64,000 nt of DNA from the IMG/VR virus record IMGVR_UViG_3300035681_000001, positions 64,001 to 128,000 of that record. One strand, 5' to 3'. Below are positions 55,802-64,000 of this stretch, in pieces. Source of the DNA: a virus. How positions within the stretch are numbered: position 1 is the first letter of the stretch; the number at the start of each line of letters is the position of its first letter. A program made the position numbers and the translations under genes. The notes under the pieces were generated by a model. The model was not told the origin of the DNA. It searched no databases and saw nothing but the letters and a program-made list of their open reading frames with translations.

Positions 55802-56766
55802 CCTTAAACGCCCGCGCTGATTATTTATTTGGTCCGTTTGGAGGCTACGAGGGCGCCTTGGAGCTTTGGGGTCTAGAAGACCTGCAAGAAATGGTGCAAT
55901 TCTACGGATATACAGCTTACCTAACACCTAGACAAACAGTGATAGAAGTACCCGTTACTGAAGGTTCACCTCCTATCACCACTATCAAAGACGTAATAAC
56001 ACCTGTACCTAATAATTCTTGGGAAGACTACGGCTGGTTGCCCGGTACACCCATACAAATTCTTAGTCGAGATTACTCACAAATCATAGAAACCGAGCTG
56101 CAACAAATACCTTACACTGACCGTTGGTGTTGGGGTGTATCAGAAGCCCAACGAGCTTGGGTAGCTTCTAAACCTCATGGTTCTAGGTGGTGGGGCAGAA
56201 TACAAACCGCTAACGGGTTTAGGGTGTTGCAACTCTTAGTAAACCTTAAAATACCAGGAGTTGCAACACCAGAGCCGCCTGCTACCGCACCAAGTAACGA
56301 GGTAATCTTGCAGTTGGGTAACTACCCTAAGATCCGGTTGCATTTAGGGTCTACCACACTAATAAAAAGTGCCGGCGAGTACGTTTACTGGAAGCCTCAA
56401 GGTAACGAGACCTTAAGTTACGAAGCTGTACTAACCAGCCCCGGTTACGATTTAGTAGGTAAAACCCTAACCGCAGCGGATACTTTACTAGTAGCTGCAG
56501 GTTTGACCCGACAACCTAACGGTTTAATCTACACTCGCACCGGAACCACAGAACTTAAAGTTACGTTAGGAGTGTCCAATAACATAATAGTTACGTCAGA
56601 AGAAGACGCTTGGGTACCACTTAATTTGTCTGCGGTTATGGGTACGGAATCTTGGAGACTAAAACAAACCGTTACCGGTAAAGCGGTATTTGAATCTAGG
56701 TCCCGTTTAAGCGGGTTAGGTTGGACACCCGCTGCTAAGGCTAGCATCACAGCTTTAATAAGTTAA
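55798..56766 (+). CDS. Hypothetical protein
   Basis: 322-aa ORF with ATGA overlap. Confidence 0.65.
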   Translation: MTLNARADYLFGPFGGYEGALELWGLEDLQEMVQFYGYTAYLTPRQTVIEVPVTEGSPPITTIKDVITPVPNNSWEDYGWLPGTPIQILSRDYSQIIETELQQIPYTDRWCWGVSEAQRAWVASKPHGSRWWGRIQTANGFRVLQLLVNLKIPGVATPEPPATAPSNEVILQLGNYPKIRLHLGSTTLIKSAGEYVYWKPQGNETLSYEAVLTSPGYDLVGKTLTAADTLLVAAGLTRQPNGLIYTRTGTTELKVTLGVSNNIIVTSEEDAWVPLNLSAVMGTESWRLKQTVTGKAVFESRSRLSGLGWTPAAKASITALIS

Positions 56767-57017
56767 CGGAACCCCAAACGTACCTTTACTTCTACTAAAT
56801 AAGTCAATAAAGCACTCAAAGCGGCTATCTGGCAGTGGTCAGGACCTACAGCTACCACGCTACTTATAATTACAATCAAGTGGTCTAAGTGGTCACCACA
56901 CGAAAGTTCATGTAAGTACTTAACGTACTGAGCTACTGTTAGGCCGCGTCGCTGGGCTGCGGCTCTAAGTGCTACAGCGGTCTGCGGATCTAAGTTGAAC
57001 GAGGGCATCAGGGGCAA
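56763..57017 (-). CDS. Small ribbon-helix-helix-like DNA-binding protein
   Basis: PSFNLDPQTAVALRAAAQRRGLTVAQYVKYL fits a strand-helix-helix pattern. Confidence 0.55.
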   Translation of the reverse strand: MPLMPSFNLDPQTAVALRAAAQRRGLTVAQYVKYLHELSCGDHLDHLIVIISSVVAVGPDHCQIAALSALLTYLVEVKVRLGFR

Positions 57018-57243
57018 CTAAAGAACAACTAGGGTACTGGGGTTCTAGCAAAGCAGTCCAAGCTTTAGTACCGTCATCACTAAGAGAAAGTACAGCAGAA
57101 GACTGCACCACTACACCTGGGTAATGAAAATACAACGCTTCAGAGTCCTTAGTAACAGACAACCCACAAGGGTGTGTTATTACTACTCGACCACCCGCAC
57201 GAGTAACGCGTAGTCTGAAAAATTGCCTTAAAAGCCAGAACAT
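56965..57243 (-). CDS. Hypothetical protein
   Basis: ATG 57243 overlaps the PAAR stop (TGATG); 92 aa. Confidence 0.55.
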   Translation of the reverse strand: MFWLLRQFFRLRVTRAGGRVVITHPCGLSVTKDSEALYFHYPGVVVQSSAVLSLSDDGTKAWTALLEPQYPSCSLVAPDALVQLRSADRCST

Positions 57244-57539
57244 CAACCTACCAACGTAGTAACAGAACCTGGTCCGGTAACCAGACCAGCGCATGAATCA
57301 GCATCACCCACTCGTATTACCAAAGCACCCCCTATAAAAGTACAGGCGGTACTGGGATACAAACTCGTAGGGTCACCGCACACCCCTAGGTCCCCAGCTA
57401 CTACTGGTACCTTACCACTTACTAAAGTAGTAACCGACCGCCCGTACACTATGCTACCCGTAGGTGACCAAGTTCCTTCAGGAGGATGAGGACAACCCGG
57501 ACAAGTTAGCGAGTCCCCCACTAGAGCTAATGGTTTCAT
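57243..57539 (-). CDS. PAAR-repeat spike-tip protein
   Basis: ALVGDSLTCPGCPH...TLVSGKVPVVAGD...FIGGALVIRVGDADSCAGLV. Confidence 0.85.
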   Translation of the reverse strand: MKPLALVGDSLTCPGCPHPPEGTWSPTGSIVYGRSVTTLVSGKVPVVAGDLGVCGDPTSLYPSTACTFIGGALVIRVGDADSCAGLVTGPGSVTTLVG

Positions 57540-58329
57540 CGCGTACCCAAAAAACCCATTCTACAAAGTAGTCTCCATCAACTATAGCAGCTAAATCTCC
57601 CTTACGACCTAAAGGCGCTTCGTAGGGACCAAACTCACCTACTACCCTTAAGTCCAACAAGTCACCAGTAGGTACCGGAGGGATACCTGTTGAGTTATAG
57701 TGAGTTTCTAAAAAGCGCTCTAGTAACACCGGATATTCACCTAGCCCAGCTTGTGGTAAACGTGAAGTATTAGCGGCACCACCTAACGACGTAACAAACG
57801 AAGGTGTTCCCGGAGCGTTGATTAAAGCAGTCACCTGAGCCCTTAAAGCGCCAACACGGTCGATACTAACTACAGACCCACCAGTAGGGTCTAGCACCAC
57901 CGGCCACCGGGCGTCCCACACTAAGTCAGAAGCTGTAGGTACGGGAATACCAGCCCAAACATACCCAGTAGTAGTACGAGTGTAGTAACCTTCAAAAGGC
58001 AACGCTAAAGGATCCGGTGGCGGGTAAACACCTCCCACTATAGGAGTAGTAACGTAAGTATACGAGTCTAAATAGAGCTCTAAGTCCACCGCATTACCTA
58101 AATGCCTAAAAGCTGCGCCGGCGGAACGAGTGTAGTTAGCTGTTAAGTAAACAGCTATGTTCTCAGGCCCTAAAGTAAATAACGGTGAATAAACTAACGC
58201 CGCAGCCATAACTGACTCAGACCGCGCCGGTACGTAAGGTAGTTGAGGGTAAATAAAACCCTCACTAACAGCCGCCAACAACCTAGAGTGTAACCCCGGC
58301 GGGTCAGTATTAATAGGGTAATAAGTCAC
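57478..58329 (-). CDS. Hypothetical protein
   Basis: 283-aa ORF overlapping PAAR by 62 nt. Confidence 0.6.
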   Translation of the reverse strand: MTYYPINTDPPGLHSRLLAAVSEGFIYPQLPYVPARSESVMAAALVYSPLFTLGPENIAVYLTANYTRSAGAAFRHLGNAVDLELYLDSYTYVTTPIVGGVYPPPDPLALPFEGYYTRTTTGYVWAGIPVPTASDLVWDARWPVVLDPTGGSVVSIDRVGALRAQVTALINAPGTPSFVTSLGGAANTSRLPQAGLGEYPVLLERFLETHYNSTGIPPVPTGDLLDLRVVGEFGPYEAPLGRKGDLAAIVDGDYFVEWVFWVRDETISSSGGLANLSGLSSSS

Positions 58330-58769
58330 GCTACCGCCGAACTAAGTAAAAACCCTAAAGAACAATGAGTCTCACTAATACCACCTAGCAAATTCATACC
58401 ACCCAACGACCGAGGGTCTGTGCTGGTGGCTAAAGCCGAATTAGCTTCGTAAACAGACTTAAGAACGGCGGTGTTAGCTGTTACTAAAGCATCCAAATAA
58501 GAACCAGCAGGTAACACACCAGTCACAGGAACCAAAGTAGTTAGTTCACTCAACAACGCCAAAGTCGCGGGCGCCCGTACACCTACACCCCTAAGGTACT
58601 CAGCCAAACGGTCTACGTTAGCATAAGACTCTTTGTAAACCCGGTCATACAACAAGTGGTGCGCGTAGAAATTAGAACCGGAGGTGTTCCAGTGCGCGTT
58701 CGAAGCCAACAACGCAAAAGAATAAACATCAGCAAACGCAGTTAACAGCTCAGACACTAGCAGTAACAC
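58326..58769 (-). CDS. dps: Dps/ferritin-like protein
   Basis: AHWNTSGSNFYAHHLLYDRVY...DRLAEYLRGVG fits the Dps ferroxidase signature. Confidence 0.85.
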   Translation of the reverse strand: MLLLVSELLTAFADVYSFALLASNAHWNTSGSNFYAHHLLYDRVYKESYANVDRLAEYLRGVGVRAPATLALLSELTTLVPVTGVLPAGSYLDALVTANTAVLKSVYEANSALATSTDPRSLGGMNLLGGISETHCSLGFLLSSAVA

Positions 58770-58905
58770 GAACGATACCAGTTTACTACGGGGCTAACCC
58801 AAAAAGAAAAAAAGAATAGCCAAAATTACGTAAAAAACCAAAACCCAAAACCCAACCCAAAACCCCCACTTAGGGTTTAAAGCCCAGAATAGGAAAACTA
58901 AGTGG

Positions 58906-59043
58906 AAAAATCCGAAATGGAAAAAATGGTGCGCGGGAAAACGTGAAATGGATTAAAGATTAAAAAATCCGAAATTTGGAAAAAATGGTGCGCAGGAAAA
59001 TCTGGTAAAAACCGAAATTTGGAAAAAATAGTGCGCGGGAAAA
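58906..59043. repeat. Three imperfect direct repeats of about 37 bp in an A-tract region
   Basis: 58906-58941, 58963-59000 and 59007-59043; consensus AAAAA(T)CCGAAAT(TT)GGAAAAAATRGTGCGCRGGAAAA. Confidence 0.9.
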
Positions 59044-59108
59044 TTAGTCTGTTATAGGTGTAACACCCTAGCGTTTCAGTCTTAGTGACTTAATCAGGTG
59101 TTAGTACA

Positions 59109-59163
59109 CCCCCCGACAACTACCTAGTCGGGGGTTTTTTTGTGGGCTTCTTACTACACCCAC
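59109..59163 (+). terminator. Array element E1: terminator-like hairpin + T7 + GTGGG/CCCAC hairpin
   Basis: CCCCCGAC-N9-GTCGGGGG-T7-GTGGG-N12-CCCAC, then GGAG RBS. Confidence 0.85.
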
Positions 59164-59172
59164 GGAGTTAAC

Positions 59173-59370
59173 ATGACCAAGACTGCTGTCTTGTTTGCCC
59201 TTGCAGCTCTCTTTGGAGGGCTGTTAATGGGAAGGGCTTCGGCCCCTCAACCTTTCAGTACCGAGGAAACTCGGTACTGCAAGGAATCCTTGCGTACTGC
59301 AAGGACGGAGCAAAAGCTCCGCAAGGCCTTAGTGGAGGCCTTGACTCCCTTAGGAGTTGAGGTCCAGTAA
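59173..59370 (+). CDS. Small protein (65 aa) with N-terminal hydrophobic/signal-like segment
   Basis: GGAG RBS; MTKTAVLFALAALFGGLLMG. Confidence 0.8.
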   Translation: MTKTAVLFALAALFGGLLMGRASAPQPFSTEETRYCKESLRTARTEQKLRKALVEALTPLGVEVQ

Positions 59371-59381
59371 CTAACTTAACT

Positions 59382-59429
59382 AAGCCCCCGGAAACGGGGG
59401 CTTTTTTGTGGGCTCTTTATTACACCCAC
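59382..59429 (+). terminator. Array element E2
   Basis: AAGCCCCCG-GAAA-CGGGGGC-T6-GTGGG-N12-CCCAC. Confidence 0.88.
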
Positions 59430-59438
59430 GGAGTTACA

Positions 59439-59615
59439 ATGACCTTCACCATCGCCGTCTATTGCCAACCCGTTGGGGCCACCCCCCAACGGAGGGGCAG
59501 CCACAGTGCTGCCTCCTTTGAAGAGGCGGTCGCACTGGGCGACCAACTCGTGGCCAACTACCACGAGGTCCTCAATACTGAGGGCTACGAGGTGTATTGC
59601 GAACTCATTGAATGA
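59439..59615 (+). CDS. Small hypothetical protein (58 aa)
   Basis: GGAG RBS; ATG 59439. Confidence 0.8.
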   Translation: MTFTIAVYCQPVGATPQRRGSHSAASFEEAVALGDQLVANYHEVLNTEGYEVYCELIE

Positions 59616-59651
59616 GTTTGAGACCTAAGCAAGTCCAGTAAACTGCTTACT

Positions 59652-59677
59652 AAACCCCCTGTGAAGGGGGTTTTTTT
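59652..59677 (+). terminator. Array element E3
   Basis: AAACCCCCT-GTGA-AGGGGG-T7. Confidence 0.85.
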
Positions 59678-59693
59678 GTTCTGTTTCATTCTT

Positions 59694-59777
59694 ATGGAAC
59701 TCTTTTTTGGTTGTTTTGCTGCTAACCTAGCAGCCGCAGGGCTGCTAGCTGTTATTTACCTGAGGTGCCTTAGGTAA
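59694..59777 (+). CDS. 27-aa hydrophobic peptide (absent from the track)
   Basis: MELFFGCFAANLAAAGLLAVIYLRCLR fills the space between E3 and E4. Confidence 0.6.
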   Translation: MELFFGCFAANLAAAGLLAVIYLRCLR

Positions 59778-59785
59778 ACTTTTTA

Positions 59786-59830
59786 CCCCCGGAAACGGGG
59801 GCTTTTTTGTACGTGGGTCACCATACCCAC
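59786..59830 (+). terminator. Array element E4
   Basis: CCCCCG-GAAA-CGGGGG-C-T6-GTAC-GTGGGT-CACCAT-ACCCAC. Confidence 0.88.
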
Positions 59831-59844
59831 ACTGCTTCAAAGAC

Positions 59845-60006
59845 ATGGCTGATTTCCAGATCGTCATCACCCCCTGGGGTGAAGCAAAAGTGGAGGCCTT
59901 AGGGTCTCCTGTTTTGCCCGGTTACACCGGACCGTTTACCTACCCGAAAGGGTGGGTGGTTGAGGGTGCCCTCCGGCACCTGAGGAGGTTGCACTTGATT
60001 AACTAG
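59845..60006 (+). CDS. 53-aa hypothetical protein (absent from the track)
   Basis: MADFQIVITPWGEAKVEALGSPVLPGYTGPFTYPKGWVVEGALRHLRRLHLIN fills E4-E5. Confidence 0.7.
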   Translation: MADFQIVITPWGEAKVEALGSPVLPGYTGPFTYPKGWVVEGALRHLRRLHLIN

Positions 60007-60012
60007 TCTAAT

Positions 60013-60059
60013 AAGCCCTCGGAAACGGGGGCTTTTTTGTGGGCCTCGTTAACACCCAC
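60013..60059 (+). terminator. Array element E5
   Basis: AAGCCCTCG-GAAA-CGGGGGC-T6-GTGGG-CCTCGTTAACA-CCCAC, then GGAGGT RBS. Confidence 0.88.
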
Positions 60060-60068
60060 GGAGGTAAC

Positions 60069-60608
60069 ATGTCTCGCACCAGCCGCGTCAACGGCCTACG
60101 CGACGGTCGTCGTGTGCCTAAAGCCCACCAGGGTTTTAGAAAGGTTCTGAGGGCCGAAGCCCTCAATCTGGATTTTCAGGTCCAGATTGAGGAGGATGGG
60201 ACAGATCACTCCTTTGAGGAGGATTGGACAGATCAGATGTACAACTGGGAGCAGTACAACTGGGAGCAGTACAAGTTATTAAACCGTGTCATTTATGACG
60301 ACGGTTTAGTAAAACTTGAGGTTGAAGCGTATATGCCTGTAAGGCAGTTATGCCTACACCTAAACTTAACTACGTGGTGGGGTAACCACTACGTAGGGAG
60401 GGATATTATTCCCCACTGCTCCATAAAAGGTGTAATCAAGGCTTTTAGAGCCTACGTTGAAGAGCTCAAGTGCAAAGAGGTAGAAATACCTTTTTGCATA
60501 TGTCCCTACGACGAAGACGGAAAAAGGGACTACCGAGTCTGTGTGTATCAGAAATTAGGGTTTGAAATAGACCCTGATGATCCAGATTTCCTAATCTTCT
60601 GGACTTGA
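60069..60608 (+). CDS. Hypothetical protein (179 aa), possibly GNAT-like C-terminal half
   Basis: GGAGGT RBS; C-terminal RVCVYQKLGF; family call tentative. Confidence 0.75.
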   Translation: MSRTSRVNGLRDGRRVPKAHQGFRKVLRAEALNLDFQVQIEEDGTDHSFEEDWTDQMYNWEQYNWEQYKLLNRVIYDDGLVKLEVEAYMPVRQLCLHLNLTTWWGNHYVGRDIIPHCSIKGVIKAFRAYVEELKCKEVEIPFCICPYDEDGKRDYRVCVYQKLGFEIDPDDPDFLIFWT

Positions 60609-60614
60609 TTTTAT

Positions 60615-60657
60615 ACCCCCGGAAACGGGGGTTTTTTTACGTAGGTCTAGTACCTAC
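60615..60657 (+). terminator. Array element E6
   Basis: ACCCCCG-GAAA-CGGGGG-T7-AC-GTAGGT-CTAGT-ACCTAC. Confidence 0.88.
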
Positions 60658-60671
60658 ACCACTAACAAACC

Positions 60672-60890
60672 ATGGCTATCTGCAAAACCTACTGGTCCCA
60701 AGTTTCTGCTTGGGCAGAAACCCTAATATGGAAGGGGGAGGTAAAGCTCCCTACTTCATATTCAGCTGCCTTGTTAAAGGCAGACCTGCTAGTTGCTTTA
60801 AAGCAATTAGCGGGCGAGAGCCCAGTTAAGTACCGCCTGCAAAGGCGGAGGGCGCCTTACCTGCACTTTGTGCTGGAAATAAGGCGGTAA
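60672..60890 (+). CDS. Small hypothetical protein (72 aa)
   Basis: Fills E6-E7. Confidence 0.75.
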   Translation: MAICKTYWSQVSAWAETLIWKGEVKLPTSYSAALLKADLLVALKQLAGESPVKYRLQRRRAPYLHFVLEIRR

Positions 60891-60899
60891 TCTAACTTT

Positions 60900-60959
60900 C
60901 CCCCGGAGGGTGCCCCTGCACTCCGGGGGCTTTTTTGTGCTTAGCAATTCAGCTAACAC
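60900..60959 (+). terminator. Array element E7
   Basis: CCCCCGGAG-N12-CTCCGGGGG-C-T6-GTGC-TTAGC-AATTCA-GCTAA-CAC. Confidence 0.85.
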
Positions 60960-60977
60960 TTAAGCCCTCGGAGGGTC

Positions 60978-61073
60978 ATGGTCAAATCTACTTTCGGCAA
61001 CTTTATAGCCGTACGTCGCCGTGAGCGGCGTAAGAAGCTGTGGGCTACCTTTAAGAGGTGGTTGCGCAAGTAA
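60978..61073 (+). CDS. 31-aa arginine-rich peptide (N-antiterminator-like motif; absent from the track)
   Basis: GGAGG RBS; MVKSTFGNFIAVRRRERRKKLWATFKRWLRK fills E7-E8. Confidence 0.75.
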   Translation: MVKSTFGNFIAVRRRERRKKLWATFKRWLRK

Positions 61074-61081
61074 CTGCCTTT

Positions 61082-61124
61082 AACCCCTACGGGGGTTTTT
61101 TTGTGGGCTATCGTTAACACCCAC
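61082..61124 (+). terminator. Array element E8
   Basis: AACCCC-TACG-GGGG-T7-GTGGG-CTATCGTTAACA-CCCAC, then GGAGGT RBS. Confidence 0.88.
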
Positions 61125-61133
61125 GGAGGTAAC

Positions 61134-61400
61134 ATGTCGAGACTACAGCACCGCTTCGCAGCACGGGCTTACAACCTGTGCTGCGAGGCGGAAGCCTACG
61201 GTTTCGTCAATTCGGGCTGGTTACCACCGGCTCGACTTGACGACGACCACCTCCAGGTGTGGGTTGCAACGCTTTTAGGGCGCTGCAACCACTTAGCAGA
61301 GTTCTTGCTAAGGGCTACTCTGGTTTATCCAGAGGCAGCACACACCCTTAACCGGGTACGTCGGCTGGTCAAAGACTACCGACGTGGCCACTTAGGTTAA
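61134..61400 (+). CDS. Hypothetical protein (88 aa)
   Basis: GGAGGT RBS; ATG 61134. Confidence 0.8.
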   Translation: MSRLQHRFAARAYNLCCEAEAYGFVNSGWLPPARLDDDHLQVWVATLLGRCNHLAEFLLRATLVYPEAAHTLNRVRRLVKDYRRGHLG

Positions 61401-61402
61401 CT

Positions 61403-61448
61403 AAAACCCCCGTAAGGGGGTTTTTTTGTGGGCCTCGTTAACACCCAC
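61403..61448 (+). terminator. Array element E9
   Basis: AAAACCCCC-GTAA-GGGGG-T7-GTGGG-CCTCGTTAACA-CCCAC. Confidence 0.88.
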
Positions 61449-61458
61449 TAAGCTAACC

Positions 61459-61833
61459 ATGTTCAACCTATTCCGTGCCGTTGCCGCTGATGCCTCCACC
61501 CCCATGGAAGCAATTAGTGCGCAACAGCAGCAGGACACTGTTGCTACCGAGGTCGCGTTGAAAGACGCGACTAAGATCAAGCAACAGGCAATGCTGCTAC
61601 GCAACGCAGCTGCAGACGCAAAACGTCTGCGGTTAGAGTTGCGCAAAGCCGAAAGGGTACAGGCTGAAGCCTGTGCTGAATTAGTTGCTGCTGAGGCAGA
61701 GGTTCTGGCTCTTCTTGATAGAGGGTTGGATAATCTTACTTTGGAGCCCCAAGGGACTCCAGAACCACAGGTCCCAGAACCTCAGTTGCAATTTGTAGCT
61801 GAAGACTTTCCTGCCCCGCCTGCACTGCCTTAA
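61459..61833 (+). CDS. Coiled-coil protein, paralog A (124 aa)
   Basis: ATG 61459; Ala/Leu/Glu heptads and a Pro-rich tail. Confidence 0.8.
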   Translation: MFNLFRAVAADASTPMEAISAQQQQDTVATEVALKDATKIKQQAMLLRNAAADAKRLRLELRKAERVQAEACAELVAAEAEVLALLDRGLDNLTLEPQGTPEPQVPEPQLQFVAEDFPAPPALP

Positions 61834-61847
61834 TTAAGTAATCAACT

Positions 61848-61894
61848 AAGCCCCCGGAAACGGGGGCTTTTTTGTGGGCTCCGTTAACACCCAC
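61848..61894 (+). terminator. Array element E10
   Basis: AAGCCCCCG-GAAA-CGGGGGC-T6-GTGGG-CTCCGTTAACA-CCCAC. Confidence 0.88.
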
Positions 61895-61904
61895 TGAGCT
61901 AATC

Positions 61905-62282
61905 ATGTTCAACTTTCGTGCCCGTGCTGCCAAGCCTACTTCCACCCCCATGGAGGCAGTGCTTGCTCAGCAAGCGGCAGATGCTGCCGGTACTGAAGCC
62001 GCGTTGAAAGACGCGGTTTCAGTAAAGAAGCAGGCCGTGTTGCTTCGCAATGCGGCAGTAGACGCAAAACGTCTGCGGGTTGAGCTATTAAAGGCTCAAA
62101 AAGTGCAGGCTGAGGCTTGTGCTGAACTGGTCTTAGCAGAGCAAGAGGTATTTGATCTTCTTAACGGAGGGTTGGATGCTCTTACTCTGCAGCAACCAGA
62201 GCAGCCAATGCCAACGCCGCCTCCACTGCCAGTGATCCAACCACTAGCAGTGGAGGACTACTTCCCTCCTAAACTTAACTAA
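61905..62282 (+). CDS. Coiled-coil protein, paralog B (125 aa)
   Basis: Shares STPMEA, LKDA, LLRNAAxDAKRLR and VQAEACAELV with paralog A. Confidence 0.8.
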   Translation: MFNFRARAAKPTSTPMEAVLAQQAADAAGTEAALKDAVSVKKQAVLLRNAAVDAKRLRVELLKAQKVQAEACAELVLAEQEVFDLLNGGLDALTLQQPEQPMPTPPPLPVIQPLAVEDYFPPKLN

Positions 62283-62294
62283 AATTAAGTAACT

Positions 62295-62318
62295 AAGCCC
62301 CTTAACGGGGGCTTTTTT
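62295..62318 (+). terminator. Array element E11
   Basis: AAGCCCCT-TAAC-GGGGGC-T6. Confidence 0.85.
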
Positions 62319-62321
62319 GTA

Positions 62322-62389
62322 AGCTTTAGCTTAACCAATAAGAGCCGTTGCTCTGGCTGTGTATCGCACAGGTTGGTTAAGTTAAAGCT
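62322..62389 (+). ncRNA. Candidate three-way-junction structured element
   Basis: 17-bp closing stem with one G-T pair (62322-62338/62373-62389) enclosing AGAGC-CGTT-GCTCT and CTGTG-TATCG-CACAG; no ATG-initiated ORF in this unit. Confidence 0.65.
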
Positions 62390-62474
62390 GCACCCCCTAA
62401 ACGTGCTAGCACATACGGGGGAAACTACTACTACTTATTAGTACACGGGGGCAAGTTTATAACCTTAACGTACA

Positions 62475-62527
62475 TCCGGAAACGGGGGTTTTTTTGTCCT
62501 GGCAATTCAGCTAGGCGTTAACACCCA
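62475..62527 (+). terminator. Array element E12 (degenerate first hairpin)
   Basis: TCCG-GAAA-CGGGGG-T7-GT-CCTGGC-AATTCA-GCTAGG-CGTTAACACCCA. Confidence 0.7.
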
Positions 62528-64000
62528 TGGTTAAAATGACCCGCACCCGCCGCCAAGCAACTGCAGCTAAGGCTGCACGCATCAAAGCCTCCCAAGTTAA
62601 AAGTGCACGTCGTGCACTCCAGTTGCAATTTGACTACTACAACTTTGAATTAGTAACTGCAGGCAAAGCTGCGGTTGCATGGAACGAATCTGGAAAAGCT
62701 ACACCTATAAAATTTGTTACCGGTACCGGTACCAGCCAAGCTTCTGGTTGGTACCAAGAAGCTTGTACCAAAGCTGCTGCGGTAGCAGCGGAAGCTGTTG
62801 CTAGAACAGCACGTAAAACTGAACAAGCGGCACGTGCTCCTTGGGAGCAGCTTTGGGTGCTGCTTAAAGCTCAATATGGGCTGCAATTCAGTATTACTGC
62901 TGCTGAGTGGGAATCCCGGCAGTTAGATGCTGCTAAAGCTAAAGCTTTAGGACTTAGGTCTCCTAAACTTTCAAAAGCCCTAGTAGCTTTAGGGGTACCT
63001 ACCTCAGAAGTCTCCTTATTGTTAGGAGCTACTAAAACGGCGGTAACAGCTGCCGCAACTAACACAGACACTTGGGTGTCTAGTGATCTTAAAGACCTGT
63101 GGGATCAAGGCAATTCTAAACACTACTCAAGCTGTCAAGCTACTGACAGCCGTGCGGCTTGGGGTGGTGATACAAATTGGTGTGACATAGCTGCAGAAAC
63201 TAAGCACCTAGGTCAGCACCTGTTCTTATGGCTAATAGGCCAGAGGATGTCCATAGATGGCACCGGTTTTACGGCACGTGCTAAATTACGCGTGCTGTAT
63301 TATGACGAGGAGGCTACCGAGATAGCTGGTCTTTACATAGACCGCCCTTACGGAGCAGCGAGTACGTTAAAAGCTGGGTTAGCTCAGCTAGCTGAGTGGT
63401 GGGCTACTCGCAGCCACACTCCTATCTTTATGCCCACTACGTGGGAACGCCGAGACGGTGCCGGCAATGACTTTCAGTACCAATATGGTGGGCTACACGA
63501 GGAAAAACTATATTCACCCTCATCAACCTCAGGCTACCAGGACACCTGCACGCAGGGTGCCGGACCTTACGACTTTATGGTGCCAGTAGCACAACACGGC
63601 AGCCTTATACGGCGTGCTTTTACCGCACGTCCCAAAGAAGGTAACGTGTACCTACTGCCCCTAGCAGCAGTTAAGTACAACCCTCAAACTGATAAGTTTA
63701 CGGTACCTAAAGTGGCTACTAGGTCAGCACGGAGGCCTATTACGGAATCCTACCGCTATGTACGTAGTTTAGCTGTCAGCCTTGGGCTAACCGACTTTAA
63801 ATATGTTGGACAACAAGGAGTCGGCTATGGCACTCCTACCACTATTTACCAAGCAGGTAGTTATAAGTTTTTCGTCAACAAGAACTTAATACAACTAACT
63901 GATGACATGGGCCACACTACATACTGTGAGTGGGAAGAAGGAAGGCTGACAGTAAAAGAAGGTAATGTAGAATTAGGCTTAGTAATATCACAATCCTTAC
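62527..64000 (+). CDS. Hypothetical protein (at least 491 aa, runs off the window; absent from the track)
   Basis: ATG 62527 (or 62536); manual translation stays open to base 64000 (MVKMTRTRRQATAAKAARIK...). Confidence 0.8.
   Translation, partial: MVKMTRTRRQATAAKAARIKASQVKSARRALQLQFDYYNFELVTAGKAAVAWNESGKATPIKFVTGTGTSQASGWYQEACTKAAAVAAEAVARTARKTEQAARAPWEQLWVLLKAQYGLQFSITAAEWESRQLDAAKAKALGLRSPKLSKALVALGVPTSEVSLLLGATKTAVTAAATNTDTWVSSDLKDLWDQGNSKHYSSCQATDSRAAWGGDTNWCDIAAETKHLGQHLFLWLIGQRMSIDGTGFTARAKLRVLYYDEEATEIAGLYIDRPYGAASTLKAGLAQLAEWWATRSHTPIFMPTTWERRDGAGNDFQYQYGGLHEEKLYSPSSTSGYQDTCTQGAGPYDFMVPVAQHGSLIRRAFTARPKEGNVYLLPLAAVKYNPQTDKFTVPKVATRSARRPITESYRYVRSLAVSLGLTDFKYVGQQGVGYGTPTTIYQAGSYKFFVNKNLIQLTDDMGHTTYCEWEEGRLTVKEGNVELGLVISQSL

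Follow-up and report, generated by a model that had tools for sequence, protein, structure and literature searches.

Why should a phage place what looks like a strong transcription terminator in front of one small gene after another, the first one included? This question is raised by a window of 64,000 nucleotides (nt), the whole stretch of DNA analysed here, which comprises bases 64001-128000 of the 189,763-bp IMG/VR virus record IMGVR_UViG_3300035681_000001 (rated 96% complete). In this window, twelve elements made up of a GC-rich hairpin, a run of thymines and, as a rule, a second hairpin punctuate a row of short genes. Judging by its genes, the source is an uncultured, Ma-LMM01-like cyanophage: the genome has the tail sheath, portal, capsid and terminase genes of a contractile-tailed phage, and its capsid protein is about 30% identical to that of the Microcystis phage Ma-LMM01, of Ma-LMM01 relatives (Fukuivirus) and of a Microcoleus phage. 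We regard the elements as composite cassette junctions in which a terminator, a 5′ leader hairpin and a recombination patch would be combined and at which transcription would be restarted by a polymerase not of the sigma-70 type, and assign to this reading a probability of roughly 0.55. A literature search found no published account of such an arrangement in cyanophages.

Anatomy of the junctions

The initial annotation of this stretch had listed twelve elements, and all of them were recovered where it had placed them (Table 1). Their first hairpins have GAAA loops in six cases (59382, 59786, 60013, 60615, 61848 and 62475), GTGA, GTAA, TACG or TAAC loops in four, and longer or irregular ones in two (59109 and 60900); they are followed by T-runs of 6 or 7, next to which stands GT in 11 of the 12 (AC at 60615). 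The statement that each unit holds one gene proved correct for the ten units that carry an open reading frame (ORF), the products of which are orphans of 27-179 amino acids (aa), but not for the unit 62295-62475, which is devoid of an ORF and resembles a structured RNA. Likewise, the number of twelve does not cover the full extent of the array: the last junction in the window precedes a 613-aa gene, and two additional junctions lie beyond the window end at the window-equivalent positions 64391 and 65044, amounting to 14 junctions within 6 kb.

A strict scan for perfect stems with a minimum of 5 bp and 4 GC pairs, a loop of 3-9 nt and a subsequent run of six or more Ts returned nine hits in the array, all of them on the + strand, and 14 hits in the complete 189,763-bp genome, again without any on the - strand, as compared to an average of 0.01 hits in 300 dinucleotide shuffles. 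With a looser regular expression, 18 hits were obtained genome-wide on the + strand, 12 of these inside 3.4 kb, versus one on the - strand. The stem energies of the first hairpins range from -11 to -20 kcal/mol, with one weak exception at 62475 (-5.7 kcal/mol).

A purine stands next to the T-run in 14 of 14 junctions (G in 13, A in one), and a second hairpin begins 0-3 nt past the T-run in 11 of the 12 window junctions, being absent only from unit 59652 because there the ATG lies only 16 nt from the T-run. The ATG comes exactly 31 nt past the end of the T-run in six units, and 30 nt past it in another. In class A, which comprises seven junctions, the second hairpin consists of GTGGGC, a loop of 10-12 nt and ACACCCAC, and is followed by GGAG; two further junctions carry compensatory variants thereof, GTGGGT/ACCCAC and GTAGGT/ACCTAC, which together with CCTGGC/GCTAGG are among the covarying arms of the second hairpins. 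Class B (three junctions) has a 6-bp stem with G.U pairs and an AATTCA loop. The mean energy of the second hairpins is -7.2 kcal/mol as compared to -3.8 kcal/mol in shuffles. Since the class A and class B motifs are confined to junctions in the 190-kb genome, where they are always fused to a hairpin and a T-run, the terminator half and the second half make up one element.

Searches of Pfam and PHROGs with the cassette proteins gave no match except for a weak one to N_peptide for a 31-aa peptide, and the array region matched no credible Rfam family. An interpretation of the elements as selfish repeats similar to miniature inverted-repeat transposable elements was rejected, the copies being strictly co-oriented, exclusively intergenic and present once per gene.

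Cassette turnover at the junctions

The annotation had further proposed that the near-identical elements could act as joints for the swapping of genes, and the comparison of array content across relatives that it had suggested as a check indeed revealed gains, losses and replacements bounded by junctions. The array of a close relative, 95-97% identical to this phage, is represented by the 4,260-bp contig L027, which was traced via the 31-aa peptide, for which there was one homologue among 1.84 billion representative proteins. Outside the colinear blocks listed in Table 1, L027 differs from this phage by two insertions of one cassette (55 aa and 61 aa), in both cases bordered by a duplicate of the junction, and by at least two replacements: an unrelated 90-aa gene takes the place of the 88-aa gene, and one 295-aa gene that of the paralogous 124-aa and 125-aa genes. 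All seven homology breakpoints fall inside junctions, at -31 to +34 nt of the T-run end and either at the first hairpin/T-run or at the ATG, which directly supports the idea of recombination joints. Where the downstream genes differ, homology stops directly after ACACCCAC, and the ribosome-binding site therefore moves together with the gene; junction 1 is 97.5% identical in L027 up to the ATG.

In a more distant lineage, formed by the contigs L014, L019 and L020, 16 of the 24 block ends obtained by comparing L014 with the other two lie within -45 to +60 nt of the T-run end (expected: 13.6%), and the joints of two multi-gene deletions are located inside the hairpin/T-run core. We have little doubt, from these comparisons, that the junctions serve as recombination joints. 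Within the array itself, the duplicated units 9 and 10 are about 90% identical in their junctions and about 70-75% in their coding sequences.

The tandem 124/125-aa paralogues (61459-62282) were duplicated along with their junction. A 254-aa gene at L014 13613-14377 is missing from L019; no junction is present on either side of it, and this indel should therefore have arisen otherwise than the cassette events. Two strain copies (L012 and L013; 99.8-100% identical) were uninformative with respect to the array.

Hairpins in the sense RNA

The annotation had read the loop types as a sign of selection on RNA structure, and this view gains support from several sides. Only on the coding strand do the loops of the first hairpins conform to GNRA or C(UNCG)G, their complements being without special stability, and a C(UUCG)G loop closes the second hairpin of the junction at 65044. 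Between orthologous junctions of this phage and of L027 there are four stem substitutions; each is a C/T change facing G, which corresponds to a G.U pair in sense RNA but to A.C on the complementary strand. In the relative L015, the first hairpin contains two G.U pairs per copy (19 of 90 pairs in the sense versus 2 of 66 in the antisense orientation), and its energy is -12.1 kcal/mol as sense versus -5.8 kcal/mol as antisense RNA. These signatures show both hairpins to be sense-strand RNA structures; the preceding RNA would accordingly carry the upstream hairpin at its 3′ end, and the next RNA the downstream hairpin in its 5′ part.

At L027 745-772, a first-hairpin loop reads ATTTCC where its siblings have GGAAAC, a near reverse complement as if the loop had been flipped; a GNRA loop is therefore apparently not strictly required.

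Conservation of the layout in related phages

Relatives were located through homologues of the 613-aa gene adjoining the array, and the contigs L014, L015, L016, L019 and L020 as well as Ma-LMM01 were found to share the layout, with unrelated sequences. In L014, L019 and L020, at least 15 units spread across 14 kb and including large genes are separated by junctions of the form GGGCC-loop-GGCCC, TTTT and ATTTA, followed by a long second hairpin. L015 has eleven near-identical junctions, whose second-hairpin arms ATTCTCCTA and TAGGAGAAT pair with the ribosome-binding site, L016 has four classes of junctions, and in Ma-LMM01 the genes gp064-067 are preceded by GGGGCC..GGCCCC, T5 and CTTYTAGTG. 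The cargo proteins show no similarity between lineages. That the form has been kept while the junction sequences and the cargo differ argues for a common mechanism of expression.

In every contig reaching that far, the array terminates at a giant ORF, to which the common mechanism is thereby linked. These ORFs are mutually homologous in L014, L016, L019 and Ma-LMM01, where the gene is gp064 (E 1e-24 to 1e-94), and those of this phage and of L015 exceed them in length and have a Pif1-type helicase at their end. The junctions of this phage cease at an operon composed of a 175-aa gene and a 2,319-aa gene, and the later intergenic regions are without junctions.

Neither a giant ORF nor a junction array was present at the six IMG/VR loci that carry the 613-aa marker according to a profile scan, and single-protein scans of IMG/VR and JGI metagenomes with the same marker found nothing. 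When IMG/VR was scanned for exact copies of the class A motif, only chance matches were returned, none of them with hairpins; a DNA search of GenBank phages with the array gave no match, and the Microcoleus phage My-WqHQDG, which provides the best capsid match, has no such terminators.

The loop motifs of the second hairpins are alike across lineages (TTAAACTCAC and TTAAACTTCAC in L014 and L016, TTAACACCCAC in class A of the window), and one of the copies in L014 has ACTCACTATA, which is also found in the T7 promoter core. Such likeness could be a coincidence or could reflect a common recognition motif. A reading of the loops (TTAACACCCAC here, TTAAACTCAC and ACTCACTATA in L014 and L016) as T3/T7 promoters was rejected, as no T7-like polymerase gene was detected; a search with PF00940 gave no match in the 190-kb genome, and the control genomes gave none either. 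A T7-style start was also rejected on the grounds that it would cut off the ribosome-binding site in this phage. Ma-LMM01 reportedly has no phage polymerase.

A probable terminator, a leader and a possible restart

The junctions head the rightward and presumably pre-replicative gene block of the phage and would consist of two functional parts. In the first part, the GC-rich hairpin and the U-run in the sense RNA would end or cap the upstream transcript in the manner of an intrinsic terminator, and a role as a 3′-end signal is very likely. The second part, from the first purine past the T-run onwards, would be the 5′ leader of the next gene, opening with a hairpin of its own (GUGGG..ACACCCAC in class A, loop AAUUCA in class B) and continuing at a fixed distance with the ribosome-binding site and the ATG. 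Each of the small, fast-evolving orphan genes would therefore be an insulated and portable expression unit, and the conserved junction of about 55-75 nt provides the homology patch for its insertion, deletion or replacement, as the comparison with relatives shows.

Transcription would begin again on the purine that follows the T-run or beside it, although the chance that the junction really is a start signal seems to us somewhat short of even. A consensus scan found no sigma-70-like (-35/-10) site on the + strand anywhere in 59100-62527. For the RNA to retain GGAG as well as the second hairpin, it has to start no further downstream than the purine next to the T-run, and a conventional promoter placed there would overlie the GC stem. 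The restarting enzyme would thus not be of the sigma-70 type and would most plausibly be supplied by the phage, since the punctuated block ends with a giant gene which is a candidate phage RNA polymerase. In addition, even the first gene is preceded by a complete hairpin and T-run, at a place with nothing upstream to terminate, and the hairpin should therefore have a role beyond ending the message of its neighbour; the position of junction 1 fits a restart as well as the processing of a longer RNA.

Several points weigh against this proposal. Both termination and initiation are inferred from the DNA, and a promoter inside or atop a terminator hairpin would, to our knowledge, be unprecedented. 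With respect to the enzyme, Pfam sees only a helicase domain in the 2,319-aa candidate polymerase, and a 3,211-aa protein of the virion module is likewise just a candidate. The high identity of the junctions could stem from recombinational homogenisation instead of sequence-specific recognition. Finally, RNA-seq exists for only one relative, Ma-LMM01 (public data: PMC5780444), in which the genes gp064-067 of the punctuated stretch are weakly expressed 'middle' genes, and the strong early genes gp054-063, which come after 42-bp repeats, are without junctions.

A more specific version of the proposal, which we consider improbable, assumes that each junction is a combined stop-and-start signal for a phage two-barrel RNA polymerase, at which the RNA would be released at the U-run and the next RNA begun from the adjacent purine. 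If true, a single polymerase entry would give rise to a series of capped-off monocistronic messages, making the arrangement a phage-DNA counterpart, in formal terms, of the gene-end/gene-start junctions known from negative-strand RNA viruses, and the junctions would constitute a new class of promoter built upon a terminator hairpin.

Alternative explanations

Instead of being restarted at each junction, transcription might begin near the repeats upstream of the array and yield a single long transcript that would be cut in the U-run between the hairpins, e.g., by RNase E. The polymerase would then either ignore hairpin/U-run signals, as might a minimal two-barrel phage enzyme, or be made terminator-resistant; each cistron would keep protective hairpins at its 3′ and 5′ ends, and the junctions would also block stray host polymerase. 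This scenario agrees with the sense-RNA signatures in both hairpins, with the lack of space for a conventional promoter in the junction, and with the presence of junction 1 before the first gene, where a plain terminator would stop nothing. In its favour are also a TAACACCC-like motif about 50 nt 5′ of junction 1, the low and even expression of gp064-067 in Ma-LMM01, which is compatible with read-through, and the precedent of YonO-type enzymes, which are without the flap for hairpin termination and transcribe a long operon (PMC5467207). However, a hairpin with a stem of -12 to -20 kcal/mol and a run of six or seven Us is a textbook intrinsic terminator, twelve of which in series would silence any ordinary bacterial polymerase, and portable cassettes would profit less from a junction unable to start transcription. 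On the whole, such a processed transcript appears rather unlikely.

A different possibility is suggested by the promoter-early stem-loops (PeSLs) of the T4-like phages RB49/phi1, PST and nt-1 (Arbiol 2010, PMC2839356; Comeau 2014, PMC4122927), in which a strong sigma-70 promoter and a terminator stem-loop are combined within a conserved motif of about 100 bp, and which mediate the insertion, deletion and replacement of orphan genes and form mini-circles (PMC2839356, PMC4122927). In a true equivalent, a host sigma-70 promoter would overlap the terminator in each junction and the host polymerase would transcribe every cassette. The genomic behaviour is indeed PeSL-like, in that the genes are orphans, the indels are bounded by junctions and a composite motif is conserved, but besides the lack of any -35/-10-like site noted above, the second-hairpin loops TTACTA, TTATTA, TTAACA and AATTCA do not match TAnnnT, and a start retaining GGAG would place the -35 element within the GC stem. 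We therefore hold this explanation to be highly improbable.

Hardest of all to credit is antitermination of the lambda N type, in which the host polymerase would start upstream and halt at the hairpins, reading through them once the 31-aa peptide had bound the GNRA loops as N binds boxB: the peptide contains RRRERR as in lambda N, is 90% conserved in L027 (L027 2876-2971) and has N_peptide as its sole Pfam match (E 0.03 here, 0.02 for the L027 copy), and the GAAA-loop sequence is identical in six first hairpins, but the match scores 15.3 bits against a Pfam cut-off of 27.9, the PDB yields no match, the regions by which N contacts NusA and polymerase are missing, the peptide gene sits behind seven hairpins, and no such peptide exists in L014, L015 and L016 despite their equal layout, so that it cannot be the core of a mechanism common to them. 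The peptide may bind GAAA hairpins.

Relation to known systems

The initial view that a terminator before every gene is unusual was overstated, given that composite terminator/promoter junctions have been published for T4-like phages in the form of PeSLs. The arrays resemble PeSLs in that the orphan genes of a plastic region are preceded by copies of a conserved, composite intergenic motif that includes a GC stem-loop, that crossovers leading to indels and replacements between close relatives lie inside the motif, and that each gene is an insulated, portable unit. They differ in having no sigma-70 -35/-10 consensus and only 31 nt from the T-run to the ATG, in a second half that is a covarying RNA hairpin beginning at the base after the T-run, in their carrier, which is a Ma-LMM01-like cyanophage and not a T4-like phage, and in that the array ends at a giant gene, a candidate phage RNA polymerase. 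As they show no sigma-70-like promoter, the defining part of a PeSL, and belong to a different phage group, the junctions are better described as a PeSL-like variant than as members of the PeSL family.

Intrinsic terminators in general are matched by the GC stem of 5-9 bp with its GNRA or UNCG tetraloop, the U-run of 6-7, the location 8-20 nt past the stop codon and the co-orientation with the genes; 11 of the 12 hairpins come after a stop codon or the RNA unit, with junction 1 having no upstream gene. Unlike ordinary terminators, 12-14 of them here stand in series with one gene each, one precedes the first gene, and each is fused to a conserved downstream leader.

Early units are transcribed by injected polymerases in N4, phiKZ/AR9 and crAss-like phages. 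The promoter hairpins of N4 have 3-nt loops, in contrast to the tetraloops and 6-9 bp stems of the hairpins found here. In P23-45, the injected polymerase reads pre-early genes, each with a conserved promoter and seven with a conserved terminator motif, which include the gene for a second, non-virion polymerase (PMC10770324). The array resembles this gp96 system of P23-45 in being a cluster of short units with a repeated phage-specific motif, joined in P23-45 by a repeated terminator motif. In the present case, however, the start and stop signals would be fused in one element, and the virion polymerase is only a candidate giant virion protein.

Mobile regulatory cassettes have so far been shown for T4-like coliphages and vibriophages with sigma-70 promoters, and the junctions described here would extend them to a separate group of freshwater cyanophages, with the promoter half replaced by a covarying leader hairpin. 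Ma-LMM01 can be cultured, so that the question of start or processing is directly testable, and the junctions would supply ready-made insulated expression parts for cyanobacteria.

Genomic setting and features of the array

The array constitutes the very beginning of a long rightward gene block (59.1 to >86 kb), from which the leftward genes at 56763-58769 diverge. The spacer between the two contains three 38-nt direct repeats (Table 1), which possibly represent a regulatory or entry region of the rightward block. In Ma-LMM01, 6.7 copies of a 42-bp repeat are found immediately 5′ of the early genes gp063-gp054.

Table 1. Positions (window numbering) of the junctions, cassettes and neighbouring features, and blocks colinear with the contig L027
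Feature	Position	Strand	Description
Three 38-nt direct repeats	58905..59044	+	Divergent intergenic spacer directly 5′ of junction 1; spacing 59 and 43 nt
Junction 1	59109..59172	+	8-bp hairpin, 9-nt loop, T7, class A (GTGGG..CCCAC), GGAG; no upstream gene on + strand
Cassette gene, 65 aa	59173..59370	+	Hydrophobic N-terminus, orphan
Junction 2	59382..59438	+	GAAA-loop hairpin, T6, class A second hairpin
Cassette gene, 58 aa	59439..59615	+	Orphan
Junction 3	59652..59693	+	GUGA-loop hairpin, T7, no second hairpin, ATG 16 nt past T-run
Cassette gene, 27 aa	59694..59777	+	Hydrophobic
Junction 4	59786..59844	+	GAAA hairpin, T6, variant GTGGGT/ACCCAC; one-cassette insertion site in L027
Cassette gene, 53 aa	59845..60006	+	Orphan
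Junction 5	60013..60068	+	GAAA hairpin with one G.U pair, T6, class A second hairpin
Cassette gene, 179 aa	60069..60608	+	Orphan
Junction 6	60615..60671	+	GAAA hairpin, T7, second hairpin GTAGGT/ACCTAC (compensatory class A variant)
Cassette gene, 72 aa	60672..60890	+	Orphan
Junction 7	60900..60977	+	Long irregular hairpin, T6, class B second hairpin, AATTCA loop
Arginine-rich peptide (RRRERR), 31 aa	60978..61073	+	Weak, below-threshold match to lambda N peptide family; 90% conserved in L027
Junction 8	61082..61133	+	C(UACG)G hairpin, T7, class A second hairpin
Cassette gene, 88 aa	61134..61400	+	Unrelated 90-aa gene in L027
Junction 9	61403..61458	+	GUAA hairpin, T7, class A second hairpin
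Cassette gene, 124 aa	61459..61833	+	Paralogue of 125-aa gene 61905..62282
Junction 10	61848..61904	+	GAAA hairpin, T6, class A second hairpin
Cassette gene, 125 aa	61905..62282	+	Paralogue of 124-aa gene 61459..61833; 295-aa gene here in L027
Junction 11, first hairpin (UAAC loop) and T6	62295..62316	+	
ORF-less unit, candidate structured RNA of ~160 nt	62317..62474	+	Starts with hairpin
Junction 12	62475..62526	+	Weak GAAA hairpin, T7, class B second hairpin, then TTAACACCCA
613-aa gene	62527..64000, on to window-equivalent 64368	+	Conserved marker for finding related loci
Colinear block, L027 1-570	58604-59171		97.5% identity
Colinear block, L027 760-1447	59129-59810		95.9% identity
Colinear block, L027 1680-3032	59787-61136		95.1% identity
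Colinear block, L027 3298-3353	61396-61449		87.5% identity

The ORF-less unit at 62317-62474 folds into a long stem with a three-way junction and further hairpins (minimum free energy -58.6 kcal/mol, z -2.67) and has no match in Rfam; it is a candidate for a phage small RNA placed between two junctions.

Elsewhere in the genome (7972-8127, not part of the window), an open frame of 649 aa contains a match to sigma-70 region 2 (63.5 bits), from which it appears that the phage may encode a sigma factor of its own.

In the strain L012, which is 99.8% identical and comes from another sample, a deletion of about 68 nt in the 613-aa gene (L012 2750-2754 = window 63030/63094) splits this gene into two ORFs, called as 174 and 373 aa; the gene may therefore be dispensable, or the L012 variant may be defective.

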